From positions 270,001 through 302,000 of the forward strand of contig NZ_CP064924.1 of the NCBI RefSeq assembly GCF_018336915.1: a DNA stretch of 32,000 nucleotides, in the 5' to 3' direction. The stretch comes from Acaryochloris marina S15 (GTDB taxonomy: Bacteria > Cyanobacteriota > Cyanobacteriia > Thermosynechococcales > Thermosynechococcaceae). The notes under the pieces are model-generated. The model was not told where the DNA came from. It saw only the letters and a list, made by a program, of their open reading frames with translations, and searched no databases. The translations under genes were made by a program, and so were the position numbers. Below, one piece after another: positions 10,479 to 29,099 of this stretch (positions within the stretch are counted from its first letter, which is position 1; each line of letters opens with the position of its first letter).

Positions 10479-11339
10479 ATGCCCAAACAAGCACCGACTC
10501 TTGTTCCTCTAGCGCTAGCAGGAGGACAAGGTAAAACCACAATTGCATTAATGACTGGGAGGATATTAGCGAGTTATGGCATCCCTGTACTATTTGTGGA
10601 TGCAGATCCACAAGCAAGTCTTACAGCTTTTCTTGGTGTAGACCCAGAAGATCGCCCAACTCTCTTGGAAGTTCTAACGCGATCTCCCGACAAACTACCT
10701 TTGTTCAAAGCCATACATGCTGTTCCAGAAAGTGAAAATATTTTTCTTATTCCATCTACTGATGAACTAGAGAATGCAAACCACTCATTAGCAGCATCAC
10801 CATCAAGTATCAATGTACTAAGAAATCGAATTCAACAAGTTGGCGAACAGGTAAAGAAAGAAGAAAAAATCACATCCAATTTTGGGATTATCATCATTGA
10901 CCCACCCCCAGAACGCTCACACCTTGCTCTCACTTCTCTGGGTAGTGGCGACTGCTGGGTTATTTGTGCCGAAGCTAATATTAAAGGTGTTCAATCACTC
11001 AAAAGAACAAAAGGATTAATTGAAACTTGTCAGTCAATGGTTCCTGCAGGTGAATTAATTGGGACAATACCTTTTCGAGCGAAATGGACTGGTTTGAACC
11101 CAACTAAAGTCACGAGAACCAACATTGAAGTCATGGAAGTCCTCGTTGGGAAAGATTTAATGCTTCCCCATGTATTAGAAAGTGATATTTACAAACGTGC
11201 AATAGACGAGCAAACTTTACCAGGAACACTGGGATATGAGCATTTAGAATTTCCGCTAAGGAGTCTTATCGAAAGAATGAGACCCTCACTCGGAAAATAC
11301 GCGAAGTCAATTCCAGTCTTGAATACGGAGGAAAATTAA
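10479..11339 (+). CDS. parA: ParA-family partition ATPase (small, type Ib-like)
   Basis: 286-aa ORF with a deviant Walker A context (LALAGGQGKTTIALMTG), then VLFVDADPQASLT and a Walker B-like IIIIDPPP. Confidence 0.85.
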   Translation: MPKQAPTLVPLALAGGQGKTTIALMTGRILASYGIPVLFVDADPQASLTAFLGVDPEDRPTLLEVLTRSPDKLPLFKAIHAVPESENIFLIPSTDELENANHSLAASPSSINVLRNRIQQVGEQVKKEEKITSNFGIIIIDPPPERSHLALTSLGSGDCWVICAEANIKGVQSLKRTKGLIETCQSMVPAGELIGTIPFRAKWTGLNPTKVTRTNIEVMEVLVGKDLMLPHVLESDIYKRAIDEQTLPGTLGYEHLEFPLRSLIERMRPSLGKYAKSIPVLNTEEN

Positions 11340-12731: not shown

Positions 12732-13832
12732 TTGGATACCTCACAAAAAACTAGTCTAAACCCAACAAGATTACCCTTGCTGGTCTGTGGTAGCTTGCTC
12801 GTCGTCGCTCTACTGATAGGAGTTTGGAAATTACCCCAGCGTCAAGCATCCATGCTCAAACAGCGAATCGAGAGGGAAGAGAATACTGCGATTTCCCGCG
12901 AGAAACTATTTCAGCTTGAAAATACGACTCGTGAGAATTACTTGAAAATCATTCAATCATTTGGTGGACTTGGCTTTCTTTTGACAGGCTACTTTGCTTG
13001 GAGGAACTTGCAAATGGCTGAGAAAAATCGTGAACTTGCAGAGGGTAAGCAGGTAACAGAGCGCTTTAGCAAAGCTGTTGAACTTCTCTCCGATTCTAAG
13101 AAGCTTGAGGCCCGTATAGGTGGAATTTATATACTAGGCCGTATTGCTAATGATCATCCTAAAGATCAAATAACTGTGATGGAGGTACTAACAACCTTTA
13201 TTCGAGAAAAATCGTTAGGAAGTGACCTTGAATGCCAATGTGATGAAGAGTATAGTAACGCTGACATCCAATCTGCCCTTAATGTTATCGGCCGTCGTAA
13301 CGTTGAAAATGATGGAGTTAGAGGATTGTTTCTTTATGGTTCAAATCTAAGTGGTGTAGATCTTTGCGATACTAATTTCAGTAATACTGTCTTCAGTATG
13401 TGTGATCTCAGTAATGCCTATCTCCGTAAAACTAAGCTAATTAATACAAATTTTTCTGGTACTAAAATTAAAAAGACAAAGCTATGTGGAGCTTTTTTTA
13501 GTGGTGCTAACCTTAGCGGTGCTAACCTTAGCAGTACTGATCTAAGTGAATCTGATCTTACTGATGCTGACCTAAGTGAATCCGATCTAAGTGAATCTGA
13601 TCTTACTGATGCTGACCTAAGTGAATCCAATCTCACTGATGCTATTTTGAGTAGTGCCAACCTGAAGAGAGCTAACCTAAAAAGAGCAGATCTTCGTGAG
13701 ACTAAAGAAATAACTCCTAATCAGATCAAACAAGCAAGTAATTGGGAGCAAGCTCACTACAGCGACGATTTCAAAATTCAACTAGGACTATCAACCACCT
13801 CTGAAGAGTCAGCAGAAAAGCCCGAAGAATAG
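12732..13832 (+). CDS. Membrane-anchored pentapeptide-repeat protein; intact paralog of the interrupted gene
   Basis: 366-aa ORF with a TTG start. It has TM segments, then VTERFSKAVELLSDSKKLEARIGGIYILGRIANDHPKDQITVMEVLTTFIRE. Pentapeptide repeats follow (ANLSG, TDLSE, SDLTD, ADLSE and others), then the tail KEITPNQIKQASNWEQAHYSDDFKIQLGL. Confidence 0.85.
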   Translation: MDTSQKTSLNPTRLPLLVCGSLLVVALLIGVWKLPQRQASMLKQRIEREENTAISREKLFQLENTTRENYLKIIQSFGGLGFLLTGYFAWRNLQMAEKNRELAEGKQVTERFSKAVELLSDSKKLEARIGGIYILGRIANDHPKDQITVMEVLTTFIREKSLGSDLECQCDEEYSNADIQSALNVIGRRNVENDGVRGLFLYGSNLSGVDLCDTNFSNTVFSMCDLSNAYLRKTKLINTNFSGTKIKKTKLCGAFFSGANLSGANLSSTDLSESDLTDADLSESDLSESDLTDADLSESNLTDAILSSANLKRANLKRADLRETKEITPNQIKQASNWEQAHYSDDFKIQLGLSTTSEESAEKPEE

Positions 13833-14470
13833 TCCAACAAAATCGATCGACCATAAAAATCCCCTTTCTGCTCAATCTTAAATCCACCCAATAGCAGCCC
13901 AAGCCAAACCGCTACCAAAGGTAATCGAACTCCCCTCACCAGCTCCACAAACGACACCGCCCCCTTAGCCCCTTCCAAATACTCTCGGATCGCGCCCACC
14001 CATGCCCCCACATCTTCTACATGACTGACTTTCAGGGCAACTGCTTCCCCAGACTCCAGCTCATCGACAAACTCTAGAACCGCATCCTTACTAACTTCCC
14101 CCACAACAGACTCAACAGGAACCCCAGTGAACCCCTGGCGACTCTTCCGTGACTTCGGCTGACGACATAGATCCGAGACATCCAGAAACATCGTCTGCTG
14201 AATCATCCCAGCTAAGAAATCTTCATCCAACACTGGACCTTCTGAGTTGTATCTGTCTTCCCAACCCTGGATCATTAGCTCTGCCCGCTGCAAACAAACC
14301 TCAGCCATATCCTTGATCGCATCTCCAGCTACCCGGAGCTGTTCGTGGGGAGAACGGCCCTGTAGATGCTGCTCCAGTGAGGCACACATCAGGGAAATAT
14401 CAGCTTGCTCTGGTTCGTCTAAAGCAGAGGCCAAAGCACTGGCAAAATCAAGCTCAAGCTGAGTGAACAT
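13778..14470 (-). CDS. Hypothetical acidic protein
   Basis: 230-aa ORF, GC-rich, with its start overlapping the stop of the upstream ORF by 17 nt. Its 3' end overlaps the convergent pentapeptide gene by 55 nt. No family recognised. Confidence 0.55.
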   Translation of the reverse strand: MFTQLELDFASALASALDEPEQADISLMCASLEQHLQGRSPHEQLRVAGDAIKDMAEVCLQRAELMIQGWEDRYNSEGPVLDEDFLAGMIQQTMFLDVSDLCRQPKSRKSRQGFTGVPVESVVGEVSKDAVLEFVDELESGEAVALKVSHVEDVGAWVGAIREYLEGAKGAVSFVELVRGVRLPLVAVWLGLLLGGFKIEQKGDFYGRSILLDYSSGFSADSSEVVDSPS

Positions 14471-14981
14471 GGCGCTTATCCTTCAGTGGACATTCCGCAA
14501 TTTCACACTCGGTCGGTTCCATGCGGATCGGGGGTTCAAATTCTGTGATGCCATACCGATTGCCCAGCACCTTCAGCACCTCCTTCAAATACCGATTCAC
14601 TTGGGTATTCGTCATCCCCATACAGTGGACGGCTTCAATTTCCGCTAGCTTCTCACTCCCCTGCCAGACAGCGATAGCCAGAGCATGGAGGTGAGCATCC
14701 TTGGGCTTTTCCTTGTAAAGATAGAGCAAAGCCACGGGTGGGGCCAGGACGGGAATCGAGAAGGTTTCAGTGGTTTTTGCTGGCGCTGTTTTTGCTTTCT
14801 GGTCAGCGTATTCTCCTCGGCGCTTGGCATTGCTTTCTTTGCGGTGGCGATAGTGATTTCGTTTGCGATCGCAGGCATTATCCTTCCAGCACCCATCCCC
14901 TTGCGGCCCATGAACCCGCTTTGCTTCCATCCGGGAATAGTCGATGCATTGGAGGCAGATGGGGTTTGGAGGTAGTGGCAT
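14454..14981 (-). CDS. Hypothetical protein with a Cys-containing basic N-terminal region and a possible C-terminal HTH
   Basis: 175-aa ORF with CLQC...C...C followed by a Lys/Arg-rich stretch. The C-terminal part MTNTQVNRYLKEVLKVLGNRYGI is helix-turn-helix-like. The alternative-frame ORFs 14645-15022, 14685-14975 and 14738-15010 look like compositional shadows. Confidence 0.55.
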   Translation of the reverse strand: MPLPPNPICLQCIDYSRMEAKRVHGPQGDGCWKDNACDRKRNHYRHRKESNAKRRGEYADQKAKTAPAKTTETFSIPVLAPPVALLYLYKEKPKDAHLHALAIAVWQGSEKLAEIEAVHCMGMTNTQVNRYLKEVLKVLGNRYGITEFEPPIRMEPTECEIAECPLKDKRHVHSA

Positions 14982-15294: not shown

Positions 15295-18200
15295 ATGACG
15301 AGTCCGAGCCCAGAACAGCAAACCATTCTATTTCTTGCCAGCAACCCTGATGGATTGCGACAAGTCGGACGAGAATTACGCGACATTAAAAACGGGTTAC
15401 GCAGATCTGAGCATCGAGATCAGTTCACTCTATGTCCCTGCCTGGATGTACGTACTAAAGATATTCAACGGGCATTATTGGATGAAACGCCTCAGATAAT
15501 TCACTTCGCTGGCAGTGGCAAAGGAGAAGCAGGACTCGTCTTTGAAGATCAAGCAGGCAATCCCAAACTTGTCGCAAGTGCAGCCCTAGCAGGTCTATTT
15601 ACTCTGTTTGCTGAGGACATCCACTGCGTCATTCTGAATGGGTGTTATACCCAGGTGCAAGCTCAAGCCATCGCTCAACATATTGATTATGTAGTAGGCA
15701 TGCAGCAGGCCATCAGCCACGAAGCGGCCCTGGCCTTTGCCGTGGGTTTCTATGATGCCTTGGGTGCAGGCCGAGACATTGAATTTGCCTTTAAGTTGGG
15801 ATGCAGTGCCATTCAAATAGAAGGCTTACCCGAATCTCTCACCCCGGTGTTGGTCCAAAAATCTAGCCTTCAATCCGCACCCCTCCACCCCTTACCCGAA
15901 CAGCAGACTCATGAAAAACTCTGGAAAGTGCCAGAGTTACCCCCCCACTTTTTACCGCGTCCTCAGACCCTAAAAGCCCTAAGAGAGAAGGTCCTTACGG
16001 ATCTAGCCCAGCCTGTCGTCATGACCGGGCAACGCGTCGGTGTTCAGGGTATGGGAGGCATTGGCAAGTCGGTGTTGGCCACAGCCCTAGCTCGTGACCC
16101 TCAAGTTCAATCGGCATTCCCTGACGGTATTTATTGGCTAACCGTGGGGATAGAACCCAACCTACTGGCTCAGCAAATCGCTCTAGCAGCAGCCCTCTGT
16201 GGTGAACGCCAGGTATTTGAAGATATCAATGAAGGGAAAAACCGCCTCCAAACCCTATGGCAAGGACGCCAAAGTCTATTGATTCTAGATGATGTCTGGT
16301 GCATCGCGGATGCTGACGTCTTCAATGTCCTGGGACATCAAAGTACCTTGGTAGTGACGACCCGTGACTCAGAATTAATCACAGGATTAGGGGCCACTGA
16401 CTTTTCCCTTTCGGTACTCCATGAGGATCAGGCGCTGGAGTTATTAGCCGCCTGGGTGGGCGTCCCCATCTCAGATCTACCCTCCCAAGCCCAGGAAGTA
16501 GCAAGAGAATGTGGCAACTTGCCCTTAGCCCTGGCCCAATGTGGTGCAATGGTGCGAGATTTAACCCCTTGGCCCCATGTTCTCAGTGCCTTACAAGATT
16601 CAGATCTTGAATTTATCCAAAAACAGTTTAGTCATTATTCCTACCCCGATGTCTTCAAAGCCCTGCATGTCAGTGCAACGGTCTTAGCAGAAACCAACCC
16701 CATCGCTGCCGAACGCTATCAAGAACTGGCAGTGTTTCCAGCCGATGAATTGATTCCTGAAGCAGTCATTGTTCGCCTATGGCAATATACCGGAGTATTA
16801 AAGGAGCGAGATGCGGGCAAAATCCTAACCACCTTATCGAGTAAAGCCATGCTGCGGCTAGAGGGGGACTATCCCCAGCGGCAAGTCAGCCTCCATGACT
16901 TACAGCAGGATTATTTACAAGCCCAGCAAGCCGACCAGAAGGCATTGCATCAGCAACTTCTGGAGGCTTATCACCAGGGCTGTCCAGAGGGATGGCATTG
17001 TGGACCGAAGGACGGGTATTTCTTTGAGCATTTGGCCCATCACCTCCAGCAGGCAGAACGCACCGATGAGTTACGGCAATTACTCTGGGACTATCGTTGG
17101 ATTCAACGCAAATTGGGAGTCACTGATATCAATGCCCTGCTATTGGACTATGAAACCTTACCCAAGGACCAAGACCTCAACAGTGTCCACAGTGGGTTAC
17201 GGTTATCTAGCCATGTATTAAATCAGCATCCTGAGCAGCTTCCCAGTCAGCTCTTTGGGCGTTTGATGAGTCAAGATTCACCCCATGTGACCGCATTGAC
17301 TCAATCTTTAGCTCAGGGACCGGGAGAATGCTGGATACGGTGTCTATTCCCCCATCTCAACCAAGCGGGGGGAGCATTAGTGCGCACCCTCACCGGACAT
17401 ACTTCCACTGTCTATGGCGTGAGCATCAGCCCCGATGGCCAAACCGTAGTCTCCGCGTCTTGGGACCAGACCCTGAAGGTGTGGGACCTGGAGACGGGCC
17501 AGGAGCAGCGCACCCTCACCGGACATACTAGCCTTGTCAATGGCGTGAGCATCAGCCCCGATGGCCAAACCGTAGTCTCCGCGTCTTGGGACAAGACCCT
17601 GAAGGTATGGGACCTGGCGACGGGCCAGGAGCAGCGCACCCTCACCGGACATATTGCCTCTGTCAATGGCGTGAGCATCAGCCCCGATGGCCAAACCGTA
17701 ATCTCCGCATCTAGTGACCATACCCTGAAGGTGTGGGATCTGGAGACGGGCCAGGAACAGCGCACCCTCACCGGACATACTGACTATGTCGAGGGCGTGA
17801 GCATCAGCCCCGATGGCCAAACCGTAGTCTCCGCGTCTAGGGACCAGACCCTGAAGGTGTGGGACCTGGAGACGGGCCAGGAGCAGCGCACCCTCACCGG
17901 ACATACTGACCCTGTCTATGGCGTCAGCATCAGCTCCGATGGCCAAACCGTAGTCTCCGCGTCTGGTGACCAGACCCTGAAGGTGTGGGACCTGGCGACG
18001 GGCCAGGAGCAGCGCACCCTCACCGGACATACTGCCTCTGTCGAGGGCGTGAGCATCAGCTCCGATGGCCAAACCGTAGTCTCCGCGTCTGGTGACCATA
18101 CCCTGAAGGTGTGGGACCTGGAGACGGGCCAGGAGCAGCGCACCCTCACCGGACATACTGCCTCTGTCGAGGGCGTGAGCATCAGCTCCGATGGCCAAAC

Positions 18201-19293
18201 CGTGGTCTCCGCGTCTGATGACCATACCCTGAAGGTGTGGGACCTGGAGACGGGCCAGGAGCAGCGCACCCTCACCGGACATACTGCCTCTGTCGAGGGC
18301 GTGAGCATCAGCTCCGATGGCCAAACCGTAGTCTCCGCGTCTGGTGACCATACCCTGAAGGTGTGGGACCTGGAGACGGGCCAGGAGCAGCGCACCCTCA
18401 CCGGACATACTTCCCTTGTCCATGGCGTGAGCATCAGCCCCGATGGCCAAACCGTAGTCTCCGCGTCTAAGGACCAGACCCTGAAGGTGTGGGACCTGGA
18501 GACGGGCCAGGAGCAGCGCACCCTCACCGGACATACTGCCTCTGTCACTGGCGTCAGCATCAGCCCCGATGGCCAAACCGTCGTCTCCGCGTCTTGGGAC
18601 AATACCCTGAAGGTGTGGGACCTGGAGACGGGCCAGGAGCAGCGCACCCTCACCGGACATACTGCCTATGTCACTGGCGTGAGCATCAGCCCCGATGGCC
18701 AAACCCTTGTCTCCACGTCTTTGGACAAGACCCTGAAGGTGTGGGACCTGGAGACGGGCCAGGAGCAGCGCACCCTCACCGGGCATACTGACCCTGTCAC
18801 TGGCGTGAGCATCAACCCCGATGGCCAAACCGTCGTCTCCGCGTCTTGGGACTGTACCCTGAAGGTGTGGGACCTGGAGACGGGCCAGGAGCAGCGCACC
18901 CTCACCGGACATACTTCCACTGTCACTGGCGTCAGCATCAGCCCCGATGGCCAAACCGTCGTCTCCGCGTCTTGGGACTGTACCCTGAAGGTGTGGGACC
19001 TGGAGACGGGCCAGGAGCAGCGCACCCTCACCGGACATACTGCCCCTGTCAATGGCGTGAGCATCAGCCCCGATGGCCAAACCCTTGTCTCCGCGTCTGA
19101 TGACCATACCCTGAAGGCATGGGACCTGCTGACCGGCATGGAAGTGATGAGCTTCACGGGAGAAGGTGCATTTCAATGTTGTGAGATTGCCCTAGATGGT
19201 CGCACCGTCATTGCTGGAGATGCTGGGGGACAGCTTTACTTTCTGCGGCTAGAAGGCCCCAGCTTTTCAGACGACGGGGAGGTTATCTCATGA
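15295..19293 (+). CDS. Apaf-1/NLR-like STAND NTPase: N-terminal caspase/CHAT-like domain, NB-ARC, then 14 near-identical WD40 repeats and 1 degenerate one
   Basis: 1332 aa.
- N-terminal domain (about 190 aa) has a caspase-like strand/helix pattern with IIHFAGSG ... VILNGCYT.
- NB-ARC motifs: P-loop GMGGIGKS, Walker B LLILDDVW, VVTTRD, a GLPL-type GNLPLAL, and an MHD-type LHD (VSLHDLQ).
- C-terminus: 14 x 42-aa units LTGHTxxVxGVSISPDGQTVVSASxDxTLKVWDLETGQEQRT plus a degenerate 15th blade. Confidence 0.9.
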   Translation: MTSPSPEQQTILFLASNPDGLRQVGRELRDIKNGLRRSEHRDQFTLCPCLDVRTKDIQRALLDETPQIIHFAGSGKGEAGLVFEDQAGNPKLVASAALAGLFTLFAEDIHCVILNGCYTQVQAQAIAQHIDYVVGMQQAISHEAALAFAVGFYDALGAGRDIEFAFKLGCSAIQIEGLPESLTPVLVQKSSLQSAPLHPLPEQQTHEKLWKVPELPPHFLPRPQTLKALREKVLTDLAQPVVMTGQRVGVQGMGGIGKSVLATALARDPQVQSAFPDGIYWLTVGIEPNLLAQQIALAAALCGERQVFEDINEGKNRLQTLWQGRQSLLILDDVWCIADADVFNVLGHQSTLVVTTRDSELITGLGATDFSLSVLHEDQALELLAAWVGVPISDLPSQAQEVARECGNLPLALAQCGAMVRDLTPWPHVLSALQDSDLEFIQKQFSHYSYPDVFKALHVSATVLAETNPIAAERYQELAVFPADELIPEAVIVRLWQYTGVLKERDAGKILTTLSSKAMLRLEGDYPQRQVSLHDLQQDYLQAQQADQKALHQQLLEAYHQGCPEGWHCGPKDGYFFEHLAHHLQQAERTDELRQLLWDYRWIQRKLGVTDINALLLDYETLPKDQDLNSVHSGLRLSSHVLNQHPEQLPSQLFGRLMSQDSPHVTALTQSLAQGPGECWIRCLFPHLNQAGGALVRTLTGHTSTVYGVSISPDGQTVVSASWDQTLKVWDLETGQEQRTLTGHTSLVNGVSISPDGQTVVSASWDKTLKVWDLATGQEQRTLTGHIASVNGVSISPDGQTVISASSDHTLKVWDLETGQEQRTLTGHTDYVEGVSISPDGQTVVSASRDQTLKVWDLETGQEQRTLTGHTDPVYGVSISSDGQTVVSASGDQTLKVWDLATGQEQRTLTGHTASVEGVSISSDGQTVVSASGDHTLKVWDLETGQEQRTLTGHTASVEGVSISSDGQTVVSASDDHTLKVWDLETGQEQRTLTGHTASVEGVSISSDGQTVVSASGDHTLKVWDLETGQEQRTLTGHTSLVHGVSISPDGQTVVSASKDQTLKVWDLETGQEQRTLTGHTASVTGVSISPDGQTVVSASWDNTLKVWDLETGQEQRTLTGHTAYVTGVSISPDGQTLVSTSLDKTLKVWDLETGQEQRTLTGHTDPVTGVSINPDGQTVVSASWDCTLKVWDLETGQEQRTLTGHTSTVTGVSISPDGQTVVSASWDCTLKVWDLETGQEQRTLTGHTAPVNGVSISPDGQTLVSASDDHTLKAWDLLTGMEVMSFTGEGAFQCCEIALDGRTVIAGDAGGQLYFLRLEGPSFSDDGEVIS
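17389..19152 (+). repeat. 14 tandem 126-bp repeats, in frame, encoding WD40 blades
   Basis: Direct inspection shows an exact 126-bp period starting at CTCACCGGACATAC. Units 6-8 are nearly identical at the DNA level. Differences between units fall in a few codons. Confidence 0.95.
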
Positions 19294-19429
19294 CTTAAAC
19301 CGTTCTAATATCCCTTCAATTCCTGCCTCAACGTTTGGGGTGTTCTCTCACAACCGAAGGCTATCGACGTCGCAATTCAATCATTGAGTGTTCCACTATC
19401 TTCTGCCCGAATTTATCCGCCCTACCCTC

Positions 19430-20527
19430 ATGACTGCCCAAACCATTCTCTTTCTCGCTGCGAATCCCAAAGATACTAAGACTCTTCGATTGGATCAGGA
19501 GTTAAGGGATATTGGTGAGGGTTTACAGCAGGCTCAACGTCGAGATGAGTTTAAGCTTGAACAGCGCCTGGCGGTTCGCCCCCATGATATTCAGCGGGCC
19601 ATGCTAGATCTGAATCCCCAGATCGTTCATTTCTCAGGCCATGGGAATGGGGATGAGGGCTTGGCCTTTGAGGATGTCAGTGGTAATACCCAGTTGGTCA
19701 GTGGTGAGGCGATTGCTGACCTGTTTAGCCTGTTTGCCGATCAACTGCGCTGCGTAGTCCTCAATGGCTGCTATACCGAGGTGCAAGCAAAGGCCATCTC
19801 GGAACATATTCCCTATGTTATCGGTATGAAACGGGCGATTGGGGATAAAGCGGCGATCTCCTTTGCCGTGGGATTCTATGATGCCCTGGGCTCTGGTCGA
19901 GATGTGGAGTTTGCCTTTAAGTTGGGCTGTGCCGCTATCCGCATGGAAGGCATTGAAGAACATCTCACCCCCGTTCTGATTAAAAAGCCCATTACTGAGG
20001 AAACTAAGGATCAGGATCAACCCAATGCTCAAACTCCTCCAACACCCGCGCCTTCTCCCATGACTCCAGACGCCGATGGACCCTTAGAGGTCTTTATTTC
20101 CTATTCCCATAAAGACGATGATTTACGAGAAGAGTTAGACATCCATCTTTCCAATCTGAAACGACAGGGGAAAATTGCTGCTTGGCATGATCGGGCGATT
20201 GAAGCAGGGGAAGAATGGGAAGCTCAAATCAAAGGCCATCTGGAGTCCGCTCAAATCATTCTGCTACTGGTCAGCCCACCCTTTATGGCCTCTGACTATT
20301 GCTACGACATTGAGATGCAACGAGCGATAGACCGCCATAACGAAGGCACAGCCCGAGTCATCCCTATTATTCTGCGTCCCTGTGACTGGAAAGGGTCACC
20401 CTTCAGTAAGCTGAAGATACTCCCTAAAGATGCCAAGCCCGTGACGAAATGGGCTGATCGCGATGAGGCATTCTTGGATGTCGTCAAAGGAATACGGAGG
20501 GCGGTAGAGTCCCTGACAAAAAAGTAG
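19430..20527 (+). CDS. Caspase/CHAT-like domain fused to a TIR domain (putative effector)
   Basis: The N-terminal domain is about 60% identical (100/163 positions, hand alignment) to the N-terminus of 15295-19293, but has an intact HFSGHG ... VLNGCYT dyad pattern. A Pro/Thr linker follows, then a TIR signature: VFISYSHKDD...GKIAAWHDRAIEAGEEW...IILLLVSPPFMASDYCYDIEMQRA, with a conserved Glu candidate. The preferred start is ATG 19430 (MTAQTILFLAANP, parallel to the MTSPSPEQQTILFLASNP N-terminus of 15295-19293) rather than the ORF-track GTG 19388. Confidence 0.85.
   Translation: MTAQTILFLAANPKDTKTLRLDQELRDIGEGLQQAQRRDEFKLEQRLAVRPHDIQRAMLDLNPQIVHFSGHGNGDEGLAFEDVSGNTQLVSGEAIADLFSLFADQLRCVVLNGCYTEVQAKAISEHIPYVIGMKRAIGDKAAISFAVGFYDALGSGRDVEFAFKLGCAAIRMEGIEEHLTPVLIKKPITEETKDQDQPNAQTPPTPAPSPMTPDADGPLEVFISYSHKDDDLREELDIHLSNLKRQGKIAAWHDRAIEAGEEWEAQIKGHLESAQIILLLVSPPFMASDYCYDIEMQRAIDRHNEGTARVIPIILRPCDWKGSPFSKLKILPKDAKPVTKWADRDEAFLDVVKGIRRAVESLTKK
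20518..20524 (+). promoter_or_regulatory. Candidate -1 ribosomal frameshift or slippage site: A AAA AAG followed immediately by a 0-frame TAG
   Basis: The last two sense codons of the TIR ORF are AAA AAG preceded by A. This is the same heptamer as the E. coli dnaX -1 site. The -1 frame is open from 20467 and runs without a stop into the NB-ARC-TPR ORF. GGAGG lies about 17-21 nt upstream. No convincing downstream hairpin was found by eye. Confidence 0.35.
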
Positions 20528-20676
20528 ACCACTCTTCGTCAGGACTCAGTCCACCAACGGAGAGTCATCAGGGCCAGGGACCAGAAGCCTCGTCATCTTC
20601 TCAGGCAAGTCCCCCTCATAACCTCCCTCGCAGCGGTGTCGTTGAATTTGTCGGTCGTGAACAAACGCTGCAGGAC

Positions 20677-23196
20677 TTGCACCAGCTCCTCCAAAAGAAC
20701 AATCCAGTAGCCCTTACTGCATTAGCAGGCATGGGTGGGATCGGAAAGACTGAACTTGCCCTGCAATATGCCATCTCCCAGCTCGATCAGGGTCAGTACC
20801 CTGGAGGACTTTGCTGGCTGCGAGTGAAAGGCCAGGCTCTAGCTGCCCAAATTATCGAATTTGCCCGGACCAAGTTGGCACTGGCCCTTCCGGATGGACT
20901 CAATGAAGATCAACAGGTGAGTTATATCTGGGGGCAATGGCCCACCGGAAAGGTGCTGATTATTTTTGATGATGTAAAGGACCTTGAGACCATCGAACCG
21001 TACTTACCGCCGTCAGACCCACGGTATAAAGTACTGATTACAACCCGACAGGATTTAGGTCTATCCGATCATTCCCTTTCCATTAAAGAACTGAGCGATA
21101 CCAGTGCCTTATCCCTGCTGAGAACCCTAGTTGGAGCAGACCGAATTGATGCTCAGCTCGACGATGCTCAAGCCTTATGTGGATGGGTGGGTAAATTGCC
21201 CTTAGGACTAGAGTTAGTGGGACGGTATCTAGCCAGAAAGCCAGACTGGTCCCTCCAAAAGCTGATCAAGCGACTTGAATCCAAGCGATTACAAGCCAAA
21301 GCCCTGACGACTCCAGCATCAGGAATGACCGCACAGTTTGGGGTCGCTGCTGCACTGGAATTAAGCTGGGTAGAGCTGAATGAGGCAGAGCAGGAACTGG
21401 CTTGCTTTTTGGGGATGTTTGCGGTTGCTCCTATTCCTTGGACTTTGGTTGAAGGATGTCTATCCGAACAGGATAAGGATGACTTAGAAGACATCAGAGA
21501 TGAAGGTTTGAAAGATAGGAACCTACTCAAACGAATAGAAGAGAGTACCTACCAACTCCATCAAATTGTTCAGGAGTTCTTTCGGATTAAGTTGAATGAG
21601 GATTCCGAACAGGGGAAATCCCTCAAAGCCGCTTATTGCAGAGGAATGGTTGCAGTTGCTCAGGGTATTAATCAGAATCCAACGATTGATGTGATTGCAG
21701 GGATGAGTGCCAGCATTCCCCATCTAGAGGAACTGATCCGACAGTGGATTGACCACCTCGGTGATGATGAATTGATGTGGCCCTATGTCGGTATTGGTCG
21801 ATTTTATGAAGGGCAAGGGAACTATGCATTGGCTTTACCTTGGTATCAAAAATGCCTAGAACAGACTCAACAAAGATTGGGCAATGAACACACCGATGTC
21901 GCAACTAGCCTCAATAACCTGGCAGGACTCTACAAAAACCAAGGACGATATGAGGAAGCAGAACCCCTCTATACACAAGCCCTACAGATGAGACAGAAGC
22001 CATTGGGCAATGAACACCCCGATGTCGCAACTAGCCTCAATAACCTGGCATTACTCTACGACAGCCAAGGACGGTATGAGGAGGCAGAACCCCTCTATAC
22101 ACAAGCCCTACAGATGACACAGAAGCTCTTGGGCAATGAACACCCCGATGTCGCTCTTAGCCTCAATAACCTGGCAGGACTCTACGACAACCAAGGACGG
22201 TATGAGGAGGCAGAACCCCTCTATACACAAGCCCTACAGATGAAAAAGAAGCTCTTGGGCAATGAACACCCCTCTGTCGCAAGTAGCCTCAATAACCTGG
22301 CAGGACTCTACAAAAACCAAGGACGGTATGAGGAGGCAGAACCCCTCTATACACAAGCCCTACAGATGACACAGAAGCTCTTGGGCAATGAACACCCCTC
22401 TGTCGCAAGTAGCCTCAATAACCTGGCAGCACTCTACGAGAACCAAGGACGGTATGAGGAGGCAGAACCCCTCTATACACAAGCCCTACAGATGAGACAG
22501 AAGCTCTTGGGCAATGAACACCCCTATGTCGCGACTAGCCTCAATAACCTGGCAGGACTCTACAAAAACCAAGGACGGTATGAGGAGGCAGAACCCCTCT
22601 ATACACAAGCCCTACAGATGACACAGAAGCTCTTGGGCAATGAACACCCCTCTGTCGCAAGTAGCCTCAATAACCTGGCAGCACTCTACGACAACCAAGG
22701 ACGGTATGAGGAGGCAGAACCCCTCTATACACAAGCCCTACAGATGAGACAGAAGCTATTGGGCAATGAACACCCCGATGTCGCAACTAGCCTCAATAAC
22801 CTGGCATTACTCTACGACAACCAAGGACGGTATGAGGAGGCAGAACCCCTCTATACACAAGCCCTGCAGATGAAAAAGAAGCTCTTGGGCAATGAACACC
22901 CCTCTGTCGCAAGTAGCCTCAATAACCTGGCAGGACTCTACAAAAACCAAGGACGGTATGAGGAGGCAGAACCCCTCTATACACAAGCCCTACAGATGAG
23001 ACAGAAGCTCTTGGGCAATGAACACCCCTCTGTCGCGACTAGCCTCAATAACCTGGCATTACTCTACAAAAACCAAGGACGGTATAAGGAGGCCAAATCT
23101 AATTTAAAGCAAGCACTAAAGATAGTAGAGGTCGTCTTGGGTCCAGAGCATCCTTCTACTCGGACCATGCGAAACAACTTAGAGTCCATCCCCTAG
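20677..23196 (+). CDS. NB-ARC STAND NTPase with a C-terminal TPR array (kinesin-light-chain-type 42-aa units). The coding frame is open upstream to 20467 with no start codon.
   Basis: P-loop GMGGIGKTELA, Walker B VLIIFDDV, ITTRQ, a GLPL-type GKLPLGLE, and an MHD-position LHQ. About 10 units follow of the form LLGNEHPxVAxSLNNLAxLYxNQGRYEEAEPLYTQALQMxxK. The ORF-track TTG start (20677) falls inside the conserved pre-P-loop helix ...GVVEFVGREQTLQDL|HQLLQ. The real N-terminus therefore lies upstream. Confidence 0.85.
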   Translation: MHQLLQKNNPVALTALAGMGGIGKTELALQYAISQLDQGQYPGGLCWLRVKGQALAAQIIEFARTKLALALPDGLNEDQQVSYIWGQWPTGKVLIIFDDVKDLETIEPYLPPSDPRYKVLITTRQDLGLSDHSLSIKELSDTSALSLLRTLVGADRIDAQLDDAQALCGWVGKLPLGLELVGRYLARKPDWSLQKLIKRLESKRLQAKALTTPASGMTAQFGVAAALELSWVELNEAEQELACFLGMFAVAPIPWTLVEGCLSEQDKDDLEDIRDEGLKDRNLLKRIEESTYQLHQIVQEFFRIKLNEDSEQGKSLKAAYCRGMVAVAQGINQNPTIDVIAGMSASIPHLEELIRQWIDHLGDDELMWPYVGIGRFYEGQGNYALALPWYQKCLEQTQQRLGNEHTDVATSLNNLAGLYKNQGRYEEAEPLYTQALQMRQKPLGNEHPDVATSLNNLALLYDSQGRYEEAEPLYTQALQMTQKLLGNEHPDVALSLNNLAGLYDNQGRYEEAEPLYTQALQMKKKLLGNEHPSVASSLNNLAGLYKNQGRYEEAEPLYTQALQMTQKLLGNEHPSVASSLNNLAALYENQGRYEEAEPLYTQALQMRQKLLGNEHPYVATSLNNLAGLYKNQGRYEEAEPLYTQALQMTQKLLGNEHPSVASSLNNLAALYDNQGRYEEAEPLYTQALQMRQKLLGNEHPDVATSLNNLALLYDNQGRYEEAEPLYTQALQMKKKLLGNEHPSVASSLNNLAGLYKNQGRYEEAEPLYTQALQMRQKLLGNEHPSVATSLNNLALLYKNQGRYKEAKSNLKQALKIVEVVLGPEHPSTRTMRNNLESIP
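21871..23130 (+). repeat. About 10 tandem 126-bp repeats, in frame, encoding TPR pairs
   Basis: Exact 126-bp periodicity with very high DNA identity between units. The last unit diverges in its second half. Confidence 0.9.
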
Positions 23197-23439: not shown

Positions 23440-23862
23440 TTAATCGGTGTAGTGTTCCTTCAGCCAGTTCACCAGATCAGAAGATTCAGTAAAGTCGAGC
23501 AATGCCTCACCAAGAGTTTCGAGTTGATCGAGGGAGAGGGATTGAATCTGGGATTGTAATTCAGGGGAAACGTCACCAATGCGGCGGGTGAGTTGGCGGA
23601 GGATGAGGGATTGGGCTTCTCTAAGAGCGCCAGACTGTTCACCTTCCTGTCGTCCTTCCTGGCGACCTTCGTCCAAGGCTTCCTGGTAAACTTTCGTTTG
23701 CTTGAGTTCGCTTAAGCCCAACATACTCTCTATCTCTTCCCGGCTCAGTTGTGGAAATTTATAGACCACAATCGTTTCAATCAACTCCATTATCGCCGCT
23801 ATCTTAGGATTTGTCTGTCTTTGCGTCTGAGCCCTTGATAGCATTGCTTTTGCTTGGGTCAC
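23440..23862 (-). CDS. DUF4351-like C-terminal module of the Rpn / PD-(D/E)XK putative-transposase family; the nuclease half is absent
   Basis: 140-aa ORF with YKFPQLSREEIESMLGLSELKQTKVYQEALDEGRQEGRQEGE...LILRQLTRRIGDVSPELQSQIQSLSLDQLETLGEALLDF. I recognise this pattern from the C-terminal half of cyanobacterial Rpn-family proteins. No N-terminal nuclease-like region lies upstream. Confidence 0.55.
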   Translation of the reverse strand: MTQAKAMLSRAQTQRQTNPKIAAIMELIETIVVYKFPQLSREEIESMLGLSELKQTKVYQEALDEGRQEGRQEGEQSGALREAQSLILRQLTRRIGDVSPELQSQIQSLSLDQLETLGEALLDFTESSDLVNWLKEHYTD

Positions 23863-23954
23863 AATATGAGGTTGAGCCGAGGTAAGCTATGGGTGAGTGA
23901 TATTAGATAAGGATGCATTTCAGGCCAGCTAAAAAAATCTGAGAAATATTATCT

Positions 23955-26690
23955 ATGTGGCCTGACTCACTTCGACATTGGAGTAAGCGAGCACGGCGGT
24001 CAATTGATCCTCGTCAAAGCCTCAAAGCTCGCTTACTGTTGATCACGTTTGGGATGGTTCTACTGCTCTCGACCGTTTTGAGTCTAGTGGTGGGCAACAT
24101 CAGCACGGAACAACTAGAAGCGGTCACTAATCAATCTTTAGAAGATCTGGCCTTTCAAGTGGCCGACAAGCTTGATCGCGGTATGTTTGAGCGCTATCGG
24201 GATTTGCAAATCATTGCCAGCCTTGACGTGCTGCGTCAACCGAGTGTCTCAATAACCACTGAGCGGAATCTGTTGGAACAGCTTCAGAAGTCCTACCCTA
24301 ACTATTCTTGGCTGGGGGTAGCAGACCCTGCAGGTATAGTGAAAGCCAGCACTGGAGGACTGCTGGAGGGAGAAAGTGTTGCCCAGCGTCCGTGGTTTCA
24401 GGCAGGACGGAAGCAGCCCTTTGTTGGTAGCATGCATGAGGCATTGATGCTAGAAAAACGGCCCTCTAATCCCACTGATGAATCATCCCGATTTGTGGAC
24501 TTGTCAACCCCTCTATTTGATGATCAGGGACAACTTCAGGGTGTTCTCGCTGTCCATTTAAGCTGGTCGTGGGCAAAGGAGACTACCCATCGGCTCATCA
24601 ATCCAGAAGCCAAACACAATCATGCTGAAATCTTGGTTCTCTGCCAAGACGGGCATGTATTGCTGGGACCAGCAGGTGTTCAGGGTGAAACATTACCGAT
24701 CACCATCCTTAAAGCCTCCAATACGAATCGGACAGGATATTTTATTGAGTCTTGGCCCAGTCAGGGGGAGTTTGTGACTGGCTGGGCCAAGACTAAGGGC
24801 TATCTCAGCTATCCTGGACTGGGCTGGATTGTGCTGGCCCGTCGATCGGTGACCCAAGCCTTCGCCCCAGCTCGGGTGCTACAGGCAAAGGTTTTGGGTT
24901 GGGGACTGGGTATCGGAACGCTGTTTGCATTGCTCAGTTGGTTGATTGCACGCCGCATCTCGTTCGTAACGATTAAACTCACCACTGCTGCTGATCGCAT
25001 TCGGCAAGGCAGCCCTGATGAAACCTTACCGACCGTTGAGGGACGAGATGAGTTGGCCCAGCTCTCGCGTTCCCTCCATCACATGGTCAATATGCTGCAA
25101 ATCCAACGGCAAAACCTACTGCTCACCAATCAACAGCTCCAAGATGAGCTACAACTCCGTGAGCAGGCCGAACATACAATTGGGGAGCAGGCTGCATTGC
25201 TGGACATTGCCACCGATGCAATTTTTGTACGGGATTTAGATAATCGCATTTTGTATTGGAATCAGGGGGCACAGCGCACCTATGGATGGTCAGCAGCAGA
25301 AGCCTGCGGCCAAAATGCAATCACCTTCCTCAATTTAACAAGTTCCCCCGAGCTAGACACCGCCGTACAAACTGTTCTTGAACAGGGCGAATGGCAAGGG
25401 GAGCTAGAAAAAGTGACCCAATCGAAACAAACAATCGTCGTTGATAGTCGCTGGTCGTTAGCCTGTAATGCAGAGGGTCAACCTGAATTCATCCTCACCG
25501 TTGATACGGACATTACTGAGCAAAAGCAGCTCGAGGTCCAGTTTCTGCGCGCCCAGCGACTAGAGAGCTTAGGCACCCTCGCCAGTGGCATCGCTCACGA
25601 TCTCAACAATATTTTCACCCCTATCATTGGTTCAGCGGGTCTCCTACCCATCACCCTAGACCCAGCAGACAGCAAGAGCCGCCGCTTGGTGCGGATGCTC
25701 AACGATAGCGCTCAACGCGGCAGCGAATTAGTCAAGCAAATTCTAGCTTTCGCACGGGGGGCTGAGGGGGAATTCATTACGCTCCAGGTCGGTCACCTAT
25801 TGGCCGAGATTCAACAGATCATCAGAAGCACGTTCCCAAAACACATTGAGCTGCAGGCCAATATTCCCACCCAGTCTCTGCCCACGGTGACCGCCGATGC
25901 AACCCAAGTCCATCAGATATTGATGAACCTTTGCGTGAATGCCCGTGATGCCATGCCTAACGGTGGCATTCTAAGTCTATCGGCCAAAGCAATAACAGTG
26001 GATGAACACTTTGCGGAGATACATATTGATGCAAAGACTGGGAAGTATGTCGCGATCACTGTTGCTGATACGGGTATGGGCATACCACTCGAGGTACAAG
26101 AGCGCATTTATGATCCCTTTTTCACGACCAAAGAGGTTGGCCAGGGTACAGGATTAGGGCTATCGACGGTGAGGGGCATTATCAAAGGTCATGGCGGATT
26201 TTTAGACCTTTATTCCGAGGTGGGTCGAGGAACAACCTTTACAGTGTTTATCCCCGCTGAACTCGATCATGAGATGGAGATACCTCAATATCCTGACTTA
26301 CAAGAGGGGCAGGGGCAGTTAATTTTAGTGGTGGATGACGAAGCGCTGATCCTGCAAATGACCAAGAGCACGTTAGAACTATTCAACTATCAAGTGGTCA
26401 CGGCTACGAATGGGAGAGATGCGATCGCTCAGTACAAGCAATATCACCCTGACCTTGTACTCATGGATATGATGATGCCGGAGCTAGGAGGGCAAGAAGC
26501 GATCTCAGCACTGAGAGACATCAATCCGCACCTCAAGATTGTTGCTACTAGCGGACTGATTACAGAGCAATTTTCTACTATCAGTGTTGATGCCTTTTTG
26601 CCTAAGCCTTATACTCTGCAAGAGTTACTTCAGACACTTGGGCAATTTCAGGAAAAGAACTCACATACTTTAGGCCATGAGATGCAATAG
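23955..26690 (+). CDS. Hybrid sensor histidine kinase: TM, extracytoplasmic sensor, TM, HAMP, PAS, HisKA, HATPase_c and receiver
   Basis: 911 aa.
- Two TM segments (LLLITFGMVLLLSTVLSLVVG; GLGIGTLFALLSWLIA) bracket a sensor domain of about 270 aa.
- HAMP-like linker.
- PAS (LLDIATDAIFVRDLDNRILYWNQGAQRTYGW).
- H-box SGIAHDLNNIFTPI, N-box LMNLCVNARDAM, G1 DTGMGI, G2 GTGLGLS.
- C-terminal receiver (LILVVDDE...DLVLMDMMMP...KIVATSG...LPKPY). Confidence 0.9.
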   Translation: MWPDSLRHWSKRARRSIDPRQSLKARLLLITFGMVLLLSTVLSLVVGNISTEQLEAVTNQSLEDLAFQVADKLDRGMFERYRDLQIIASLDVLRQPSVSITTERNLLEQLQKSYPNYSWLGVADPAGIVKASTGGLLEGESVAQRPWFQAGRKQPFVGSMHEALMLEKRPSNPTDESSRFVDLSTPLFDDQGQLQGVLAVHLSWSWAKETTHRLINPEAKHNHAEILVLCQDGHVLLGPAGVQGETLPITILKASNTNRTGYFIESWPSQGEFVTGWAKTKGYLSYPGLGWIVLARRSVTQAFAPARVLQAKVLGWGLGIGTLFALLSWLIARRISFVTIKLTTAADRIRQGSPDETLPTVEGRDELAQLSRSLHHMVNMLQIQRQNLLLTNQQLQDELQLREQAEHTIGEQAALLDIATDAIFVRDLDNRILYWNQGAQRTYGWSAAEACGQNAITFLNLTSSPELDTAVQTVLEQGEWQGELEKVTQSKQTIVVDSRWSLACNAEGQPEFILTVDTDITEQKQLEVQFLRAQRLESLGTLASGIAHDLNNIFTPIIGSAGLLPITLDPADSKSRRLVRMLNDSAQRGSELVKQILAFARGAEGEFITLQVGHLLAEIQQIIRSTFPKHIELQANIPTQSLPTVTADATQVHQILMNLCVNARDAMPNGGILSLSAKAITVDEHFAEIHIDAKTGKYVAITVADTGMGIPLEVQERIYDPFFTTKEVGQGTGLGLSTVRGIIKGHGGFLDLYSEVGRGTTFTVFIPAELDHEMEIPQYPDLQEGQGQLILVVDDEALILQMTKSTLELFNYQVVTATNGRDAIAQYKQYHPDLVLMDMMMPELGGQEAISALRDINPHLKIVATSGLITEQFSTISVDAFLPKPYTLQELLQTLGQFQEKNSHTLGHEMQ

Positions 26691-27458: not shown

Positions 27459-29099
<1,641 letters not shown>

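Follow-up and report, generated by a model that had tools for sequence, protein, structure and literature searches.

Apaf-1 orthologues built from caspase-like, NB-ARC and WD40 modules have been published for cyanobacteria, as have modular effector-STAND-repeat systems (STAND, signal transduction ATPases with numerous domains) for multicellular bacteria (PMC13581612; PMC7159879). In some of the gene pairs described, an effector and a NOD-like receptor (NLR) share a small module, as in the effector-associated domain (EAD) pairs (PMC7159879) and the Bell-BASS/NLR amyloid pairs (bioRxiv 10.1101/2020.01.06.895854), and type IV Thoeris uses a TIR signal to switch on a protease of caspase-like type (bioRxiv 10.1101/2024.10.24.620036). 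Here we analyzed a stretch of 32,000 nucleotides (nt) from Acaryochloris marina S15 (NZ_CP064924.1, positions 270,001–302,000; hereafter the window), which carries at window positions 15295–23196 a cassette of three open reading frames (ORFs) in one orientation: ORF1 (15295–19293), ORF2 (19388/19430–20527) and ORF3 (20677–23196). The initial annotation of this DNA did not recognize the three-part arrangement as a characterized system. The uniqueness of the architecture was overstated: Apaf-1-like architectures in cyanobacteria were already in print (see above). The cassette is found on at least four other Acaryochloris plasmids. With the architecture already known, it is the conserved recoding junction between ORF2 and ORF3 that appears to be new, with good comparative support.

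We consider it probable, from the sequence comparisons below, that the locus is an NLR/Apaf-1-like (AP-ATPase STAND) conflict cassette in which three proteins are produced from three frames by means of a −1 frameshift. The slip site would most likely let one mRNA yield both a free CHAT-TIR effector and the same effector fused to a sensor. The elements of the junction, all on the forward (+) strand, are as follows.

19430..20527, +: ORF2, 365 amino acids (aa), CHAT-TIR effector, the short 0-frame product, from ATG 19430
20518..20524, +: predicted slippery heptamer A_AAA_AAG in the ORF2 frame (ACA AAA AAG)
20525..20527, +: ORF2 stop codon TAG, abutting the heptamer on its 3′ side; the next codon after a −1 slip would be GTA (Val)
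20531..20565, +: stem-loop, putative frameshift stimulator, starting 6 nt past the heptamer
20524..20676, +: linker read in the −1 frame, VDHSSSGLSPP...PPHNLPRSGVVEFVGREQTLQD, without ATG, GTG or TTG
20677..23196, +: ORF3 as usually annotated, 839 aa, NB-ARC plus TPR, TTG start

The 3′ end of ORF2 reads ACA AAA AAG TAG (20516–20527), and we take A_AAA_AAG in this register to be a −1 slippery heptamer of the dnaX/IS type (reviewed in PMC5009743). ORF2 lies in frame 0 and ORF3 in frame −1, which is open across the gap, from 20464, so that the recoding junction suspected at the outset is indeed present. No ATG, GTG or TTG occurs in the 51 codons after the slip, until the annotated TTG of ORF3. 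The stem in the window has 9 bp (20531–20539 with 20557–20565) and an inner hairpin (20542–45 with 20549–52), with a z-score of −2.65. A tandem slip at the heptamer would give, conceptually, a CHAT-TIR-NB-ARC-TPR protein of 1255 aa, and ORF3 is most likely translated as its C-terminal 890 aa. The junction combines a 0-frame X_XXY_YYZ heptamer, a start-less overlapping −1 ORF, a putative stimulatory structure 6 nt downstream, within the 5–9 nt range of dnaX/IS3-type sites, and a conservation of nucleotides that exceeds what the protein needs and is lost where the −1 ORF is absent. A Rfam scan of 20300–20800 at a permissive threshold returned chance snoRNA-like matches alone and no known frameshift element.

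The linker evolves as coding sequence: its variable sites at codon positions 1, 2 and 3 of the −1 frame number 16, 9 and 21, and the other frames contain stops. Ahead of the annotated TTG it also holds the motif that precedes the P-loop, NLPRSGVVEFVGRE (PPHNLPRSG...FVGRE), a conserved part of the NB-ARC module. When linker and NB-ARC together served as the query of an exhaustive search, 41,985 homologues were retrieved; of the 150 listed, nearly all align from this motif onward, and most carry an in-frame N-terminal effector (full CHAT, Peptidase_C14, TRADD-like N or ParA-like).

Heptamer, TAG and open −1 frame are identical in five other Acaryochloris copies, despite ~14% divergence and many substitutions in the linker. 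Scans of genome and metagenome collections, together with look-ups of individual homologues, identified the same junction in Stenomitos, Acaryochloridaceae, Coleofasciculaceae, Leptothoe, Leptolyngbyales, Elainellaceae and several metagenome or uncultured lineages, where the CHAT-TIR proteins are 55–77% identical and the linkers unrelated (comparison loci fetched in the analysis are labelled L plus a number). Across these loci the −1 ORF runs for 194–1158 codons and encodes NB-ARC-TPR, NB-ARC-APAF1_C-WD40, nSTAND1, a 300-aa AAA_16 ATPase, TPR only, or an unknown domain. A Lys-Lys (KK) C-terminus is found in 59 of 81 near-full-length CHAT-TIR homologues. The codon before KK is ACA, CCA, TCA, GCA, TTA, CTA or GGA; the amino acid thus varies (T, P, S, A, L or G) while the wobble A is invariant, as X_XXY_YYZ requires. 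The heptamer itself is invariant in 16 aligned junctions.

Natural controls were available in loci L167 and L171, which end in GCA AAG AAG TAA and TTA AAG AAG TAG, respectively. KK is kept and the slippery run is gone; the −1 frame closes after only 12 and 19 codons, and neither locus has the stem. The association between heptamer and long −1 ORF was significant (19/21 vs. 4/17; Fisher p = 4e-5, or 4e-4 with Acaryochloris counted as one lineage). Among 1490 A6[AG] sites in all fetched loci (3.2 Mb), the junction geometry occurred at 24, all of them at effector/NTPase junctions.

Five of the seven junction sequences that were folded gave stem-loop z-scores of −2.0 to −4.0. In other lineages the stem is built from different sequences at the same 6-nt spacing. 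The alignment of 16 junctions contains an 8-bp helix beginning 6 nt past the heptamer, with 82.8% of cells paired vs. 63.8% in shuffles (0/500 shuffles) and compensatory changes at all eight helix pairs; when the partner columns were slid as a control, pairing was 39–57%. The long architecture also occurs naturally in a single frame, as CHAT-TIR-STAND-TPR in L098 and TIR-NB-ARC-TPR in L148. We conclude that the proposal to read ORF2 and ORF3 together as a TIR-NB-ARC-repeat protein is strongly supported by the comparative evidence for a programmed −1 frameshift.

Stand-alone CHAT-TIR genes without a −1 ORF were also observed in Nostoc (L010, L011 and L031) and in Calothrix NIES-2100 (L008). The Nostoc genes have a new TAA stop, followed six codons on by an in-frame TCA AAA AAG TAG (L010, 8063–8084), and a truncated relic junction, TCA AAA TAG, occurs among this Nostoc and Calothrix set. 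These relics look like frameshift sites that decayed after the sensor module was lost.

Several observations weigh against the frameshift cassette we propose. The heptamer is followed by a short −1 ORF in L020 (5 codons) and L169 (35 codons), and in L015 the heptamer is missing in front of a long −1 NB-ARC ORF. Stems are weak in L007 and L012. Three lineages have a TTG 4 codons into the −1 frame, and coupled re-initiation is therefore possible in them. A run of six A could support some transcriptional slippage. The GGAGG upstream of the Acaryochloris heptamer is not kept elsewhere, and no PADLOC system model fits the cassette. We had considered this GGAGG (20497–20501) as a dnaX-like Shine-Dalgarno (SD) stimulator; it overlaps the conserved RRAV codons and is itself conserved only in Acaryochloris and Stenomitos, and a general SD-like stimulator was rejected for that reason.

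Other explanations of the junction were weighed against the same evidence. ORF2 and ORF3 could be ordinary separate genes, ORF3 starting from TTG 20677 and A_AAA_AAG-stop being merely a conserved Lys-Lys C-terminus. RefSeq annotates their homologues on pREB7 and pREB8 in this way, as two coding sequences with a TTG start; a TTG-initiated protein would still hold β1 and the P-loop, and some lineages have a TTG or GTG 4–17 codons into the −1 frame. We nevertheless consider this improbable. The TTG is a Leu codon that has changed to TTA in L003, and the first start codon of the −1 frame in L003 and L074 is the Met inside the GMGGIGKT P-loop. The coding-type evolution of the 51 upstream codons and the conservation of their motif in nearly all 150 listed homologues argue in the same direction, as do the AAG AAG spelling of KK and the missing stem where no −1 ORF follows, the invariable A at the wobble position of the preceding codon, and the covariation of the stem. 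That the pair is instead a decaying pseudogene, in which an ancestral in-frame CHAT-TIR-NB-ARC-TPR gene was hit by a 1-nt indel in the A-run, or a sequencing error, we find scarcely credible. Homopolymers are indeed prone to indels, in-frame relatives of the long product exist (CHAT-TIR-STAND-TPR in L098; TIR-NB-ARC-TPR in L148), and some copies are decaying (ORF1 and ORF3 split in L003; ORFs shortened in L001). Yet complete plasmids that were sequenced independently share the junction with distant genera whose linkers are unrelated and whose downstream modules are of at least four types, the stop exactly abuts the heptamer, the covarying stem keeps its fixed 6-nt spacing, and −1 ORFs of 300–1158 codons remain open.

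The frames might also be joined by RNA polymerase slipping on the A-run rather than by the ribosome, with the same protein outcome; we give this little weight. Microcystis has a run of ~10 A leading into a VMAP-C ORF, and L130 a run of eight. Long A-runs are known slippage sites (reviewed in PMC5009743). Most of the sites, however, have just six A, a short run for a polymerase to slip on efficiently, and then an invariant G, and their conserved stem-loop has the 6-nt spacing that is usual for a stimulator of ribosomal −1 frameshifting. The last alternative concerns function: the cassette could be a module for regulated cell death, kin discrimination or plasmid addiction instead of anti-phage defence, which we regard as unlikely. 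It lies on plasmids beside ParA, with paralogues on several plasmids of one strain, it fits no PADLOC system model, and its homogenized WD40 and TPR repeats have few variable positions, in which they resemble fungal allorecognition NLRs. On the other hand, related STAND, TIR and CHAT modules are anti-phage in other bacteria (PMC13581612; bioRxiv 10.1101/2024.10.24.620036). The present data do not distinguish between triggers of the cassette.

The frameshift cassette that we favor might work as follows. ORF1 would act as a sensor, with WD40 propellers, NB-ARC and an N-terminal CHAT-like domain lacking the catalytic His. Most ribosomes translating ORF2 would stop at TAG and release a 41-kDa (365-aa) CHAT-TIR protein, whereas a minority would slip −1 on A_AAA_AAG, aided by the adjoining TAG and by the stem-loop 6 nt downstream, and cross the linker into ORF3 to make a 1255-aa CHAT-TIR-NB-ARC-TPR receptor. 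An adjacent stop may contribute a “shifty stop” effect. The frameshift would thereby fix the ratio of free to sensor-tethered effector. Binding of a ligand to the TPR or WD40 sensors would lead to NB-ARC oligomerization and the clustering of CHAT-TIR heads, and free CHAT-TIR would be recruited by homotypic CHAT and/or TIR contacts to the CHAT-TIR of the long form and to the pseudo-CHAT of ORF1, through which a second specificity would act on that effector. The SAVED-CHAT protease 8tl0 and several TIR domains are described as filament-acting in their PDB entries. The output would be TIR NAD+ chemistry and/or CHAT proteolysis, causing growth arrest or cell death. We infer the defence function and the co-assembly of the products; since no PADLOC system model fits the cassette, the defence role is suggested by architecture only.

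The junction may also be an instance of something broader. Overall, its downstream partners comprise NB-ARC-TPR, NB-ARC-WD40, nSTAND1, AAA_16 and VMAP-C, and at least one upstream effector is not CHAT-TIR (L175). We tentatively propose, with slightly less than even confidence, that recoding at the boundary between effector and nucleotide-binding oligomerization domain is a general, selected route by which cyanobacterial NLR-like systems obtain a free effector and a tethered sensor from one mRNA at a fixed ratio. It would chiefly use A_AAA_AAG, a stop and a stem-loop, while variants would rely on longer A-runs and, in Bell-like/NB-ARC pairs, perhaps on readthrough of the stop; assembly would be nucleated by the scarce long form, on which the abundant short one would polymerize, following the logic of Gag/Gag-Pol and phage G/GT.

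Variant junctions were seen at several other loci. In L175 (1655–1715; JGI metagenome 3300037509), an upstream gene for a 163-aa helical protein of no Pfam family ends in GCA AAA AAG TCG TAG, the −1 frame, open for 887 codons, reaches into NB-ARC-TPR, and the heptamer is followed after 6 nt by a stem-loop (z −3.0); by our reading, this is the same recoding design without CHAT-TIR. The CHAT-TIR genes of Microcystis L025 (8160–9162) and L026 end in GAT AAA AAA AAA AGA TAG, the ~10-A run mentioned above, and their −1 frame encodes a VMAP-C domain of 325–330 aa; this long-run variant might work by transcriptional slippage. In L130 a CHAT-only ORF with GTA AAA AAA AAG (8-A run) leads into a P-loop ORF. 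L174 (737–830) and L176 (2896–3005) encode helical proteins of 142 and 152 aa with a Gly/Asn-rich C-terminus, Bell/BASS-like by eye, in frame with the next NB-ARC-TPR ORF. A single stop separates the two (ACT TGA CTA GAG and TAT TAG CTG CAG), and no start codon precedes the NLPxSG motif. This could reflect stop-codon readthrough or decay; hairpins after the in-frame stops of both loci were no better than shuffles, and we do not claim readthrough for them.

The domains of the effector encoded by ORF2 are listed below.

19433..19987, +: ORF2 CHAT (caspase-fold) domain, with His in HFSGHG and Cys in LNGCYT
20066..20524, +: ORF2 TIR domain (TIR_2; ThsB1-type in PADLOC), with an invariant Glu in CYDIEMQRA

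Because homologues measure 362–371 aa, ATG 19430 (365 aa) is most likely the start of ORF2, rather than 19388. Pfam identified CHAT (E 1.9e-9, 37.8 bits) and TIR_2 (E 2.8e-16, 60.5 bits; cut-off 28), and PADLOC assigned the TIR to the ThsB1 type (E 6.5e-63). The AlphaFold model (mean predicted local distance difference test, pLDDT, 81) had as its top PDB match the SAVED-CHAT protease 8tl0 (E 5e-11), followed by caspases (caspase-4, -9 and -11) and MALT1, and its second half matched the TIR domains of MAL, SPARTA, TLR10, RPPT, L6, Roq1 and SARM1. Model match, profile match and Pfam all place the CHAT domain in the caspase-hemoglobinase fold. In a profile search of the PDB, 8tl0 was matched at 7.9e-22, its HFIGHG and LNAC aligning with HFSGHG and LNGCY of ORF2. 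The His-Cys dyad is present: H71 (HFSGHG) and C114 (LNGCYT) are invariant in 25 homologues. The likewise invariant E295 (CYDIEMQRA) aligns in sequence with the D-ELEQA segment of the Cat1 TIR. Pfam, PADLOC, the AlphaFold model and the PDB matches thus agree that ORF2 is CHAT plus TIR, and because these sources also support the other domains, the parts list of the initial annotation was correct.

ORF1 encodes the following parts.

15295..19293, +: ORF1, 1332 aa, Apaf-1-like STAND sensor (probable pseudo-CHAT, NB-ARC, APAF1_C helical domain, WD40 array)
15313..15861, +: ORF1 CHAT-like domain, aa 7–189, 60% identity to the ORF2 CHAT
16030..16674, +: ORF1 NB-ARC, aa 246–460, with P-loop GMGGIGKS at 16048–16071 and Walker B LLILDDV
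16939..17163, +: ORF1 APAF1_C helical domain, aa 549–623
17389..19278, +: ORF1 WD40 array, 14 blades of exactly 42 aa plus 1 degenerate blade

The composition read by eye in ORF1 (CHAT-like domain, NB-ARC, 14 WD40 blades and a degenerate one) held up, with NB-ARC at E 5e-27 (95.1 bits; Pfam cut-off 23.5), APAF1_C at E 1.8e-12 and the blades as listed; the LHD predicted at the MHD position is found at aa 533. The claim of a CHAT-like domain stood as regards homology (PADLOC “chat” E 2.9e-16; 60% identity between the N-terminal domains of ORF1 and ORF2 over 183 aa). The Pfam CHAT score of 23.5 bits falls narrowly below the 24-bit cut-off, and the catalytic His is replaced by Ser (HFAGSG), with the Cys retained (LNGCYT); a His-Cys dyad is thus absent. 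Wherever an ORF1-type protein was found beside a CHAT-TIR gene, it has S or R in place of the GHG His and keeps the Cys, whereas this His is present in ~140 of ~160 members of the CHAT family, including the sole in-frame CHAT-NB-ARC protein without a CHAT-TIR neighbor. With S or R at the His and a Pfam score under the cut-off, we class the domain as homologous to the CHAT family but not as an active protease; given the loss of the His, it is probably an inactive docking pseudo-protease. The earlier idea of a shared adaptor-like domain fits the confinement of His loss to ORF1-type proteins. The shared domain is not among the Pfam EADs; EAD1, EAD and TRADD-N matches occur in other family members and not in the window.

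Beyond its start and linker, ORF3 has two further features.

20728..20751, +: ORF3 P-loop GMGGIGKT
21877..23093, +: ORF3 TPR array, ~10 units of 42 aa, 126-nt repeats 93% identical

ORF3 is NB-ARC plus a TPR array, as had been proposed. Its NB-ARC (E 4.9e-14, 52.6 bits; Pfam cut-off 23.5) begins at profile position 11, residue 3, and carries GMGGIGKT, a Walker B VLIIFDDV and LHQ at the place equivalent to MHD. ORF1 and ORF3 both have Walker A and B motifs and score above the NB-ARC cut-off. The Apaf-1-type features downstream of NB-ARC are also present, as APAF1_C, LHD and WD40 in ORF1 and as LHQ and TPR in ORF3. The WD40 array (17382–19128) and the TPR array (21877–23093) are both made of 126-nt tandem repeats that are 93% identical, and amino-acid variation is limited to a few positions per unit. 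This pattern looks like concerted evolution with hypervariable sites, resembling the repeats of fungal NLRs.

The surroundings of the cassette agree with the plasmid or accessory setting that was initially suggested. The best matches of the window are Acaryochloris plasmids, namely pMB04 of “Moss Beach” (93% identity) and pREB8 and pREB7 of A. marina MBIC11017 (~87%).

10479–11339: ParA, in the neighborhood of the cassette
13778–14981, −: two ORFs divergent to the cassette, of 175 aa (14454–14981) and 230 aa (13778–14470)
near 23666–23868: Rpn/transposase-like remnant

Co-occurrence of the three genes had been named as a check. The order ORF1-ORF2-ORF3 is kept on four other Acaryochloris plasmids (pMB04, pMB06, pREB7 and pREB8), with paralogous copies of the cassette on several plasmids within one strain, and in a metagenome contig unrelated to Acaryochloris a CHAT-TIR gene is immediately preceded by an orthologue of ORF1 (60% identity over 699 aa). 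The copy on pMB06 (L003, 3912–11438) is decaying, with ORF1 broken into CHAT and NB-ARC pieces and ORF3 in two; the heptamer and stop of its ORF2 are intact. Simple terminator and promoter scans between the three ORFs gave nothing above the shuffled expectation.

Both divergent upstream ORFs, the 175-aa one with a Cys-rich N-terminus, travel with the cassette on every Acaryochloris plasmid copy, and a Pfam search of the two gave no match; whether they are part of the system is uncertain. The pair also occurs on plasmid2 of Calothrix sp. NIES-4105 (~34% identity), near a CHAT-like gene (L046). Genes around the cassette encode ParA, a GroEL paralogue, pentapeptide-repeat proteins and a hybrid histidine kinase. 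The kinase (dCache-HAMP-PAS with a receiver domain, 23955–26690) lies directly downstream, and the plasmid-borne GroEL/Cpn60 paralogue (27459–29093, minus strand) also lies downstream. In L167 (6207–7832), the contig with the non-slippery CHAT-TIR and an ORF1 orthologue, a gene for an FGE-sulfatase domain protein comes next; this domain type is a reported STAND sensor (PMC13581612).

If the frameshift is real, it would be the first −1 case in an NLR-like immune or cell-death receptor. Our literature search, which was incomplete, turned up no account of an effector being linked to an NLR-like sensor by frameshifting, and an earlier description is possible. To our knowledge, programmed −1 frameshifting in bacterial cellular genes amounts to a handful of cases (dnaX, copA, csoS2, cdd and transposases; reviewed in PMC5009743). 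The junctions would represent a new family of bacterial −1 frameshifts, and a widespread one, since 59/81 close CHAT-TIR homologues end in KK. They also suggest a concrete answer to how STAND systems set the stoichiometry of effector to sensor. Hundreds of cyanobacterial pairs annotated as a “TIR domain-containing protein” and an N-terminally truncated “tetratricopeptide repeat” or “NB-ARC” protein may be mis-annotated halves of one recoded gene. Heptamer, stop, 6 nt and stem would make a compact, portable frameshift cassette of cyanobacterial origin.

Compared with known defence systems, PADLOC recognized no complete system in the cassette and matched single-domain models only (chat, TPR, HEAT-ARM for WD40, and ThsB1-type TIR). 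The initial annotation had pointed to Avs/bNACHT-type families; no Avs or bNACHT match was obtained, and as modelled in PADLOC the cassette belongs to neither. Like type IV Thoeris, it pairs a TIR with a caspase-like protease, but it has no separate ThsA-like partner: no ThsA model matched ORF1, ORF2 or ORF3, and only the ORF2 TIR matched ThsB1. Lacking ThsA, the cassette is not Thoeris. The SAVED-CHAT protease 8tl0 of type III CRISPR, which works as a filament, is nearest to the ORF2 CHAT in sequence (8e-22) and fold (5e-11); the cassette, in contrast, has no SAVED sensor and places CHAT and TIR in one chain coupled to STAND NTPases.

Among receptors, ORF1 resembles the published cyanobacterial Apaf-1-like proteins in having a caspase-fold domain, NB-ARC, APAF1_C and enough WD40 for two propellers; it differs in having no catalytic His in its caspase-fold domain and in being accompanied by a separate CHAT-TIR gene. 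ORF3 is a typical member of the published NB-ARC-TPR STANDs (PMC7159879), and its homologues carry swappable N-terminal effectors, but its own frame supplies no N-terminal effector, which it would gain only by a −1 frame change. The predicted frameshift product has the TIR-NB-ARC-repeat order of plant TNL receptors (TIR-NB-ARC-LRR) and of bacterial TIR-NB-ARC-TPR (L148), and the ORF2 TIR fold matches the TIR of the plant receptors L6, RPP1, Roq1 and RPS4. Unlike plant TNLs, the cassette adds an N-terminal CHAT, has TPR instead of LRR, and would join TIR to NB-ARC by recoding.

As a recoding site, the junction is closest to tau/gamma of Escherichia coli dnaX, with which it shares the identical heptamer A_AAA_AAG, a spacer of ~6 nt to a stem-loop, and two products with a common N-terminus. 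The cassette differs in that its frameshift would give the long product, where that of dnaX gives the short one, in that its 0-frame stop abuts the heptamer, and in that it has no conserved SD-like element. Both dnaX tau/gamma and orfA/orfAB of the IS3 family are programmed −1 frameshifts (reviewed in PMC5009743). The frameshift of IS3 orfA/orfAB gives the long product, as in the cassette. The phage tail chaperones G/GT and retroviral Gag/Gag-Pol are made as short and frameshifted long forms that share an N-terminal module. The proposed abundant short form and rare frameshifted long form, with their shared N-terminal module, follow the same scheme; the proteins are unrelated to those of the cassette, for which we infer co-assembly only.

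The EAD and Bell-BASS pairs are similar in that adjoining effector and STAND genes share an N-terminal module, which is presumed to mediate homotypic recruitment; in ORF1 and ORF2 the shared module spans 183 aa at 60% identity. Here, however, it is a caspase-fold domain and not an EAD or an amyloid motif, and what ORF2 and ORF3 would share is the whole effector, translated onto the sensor.

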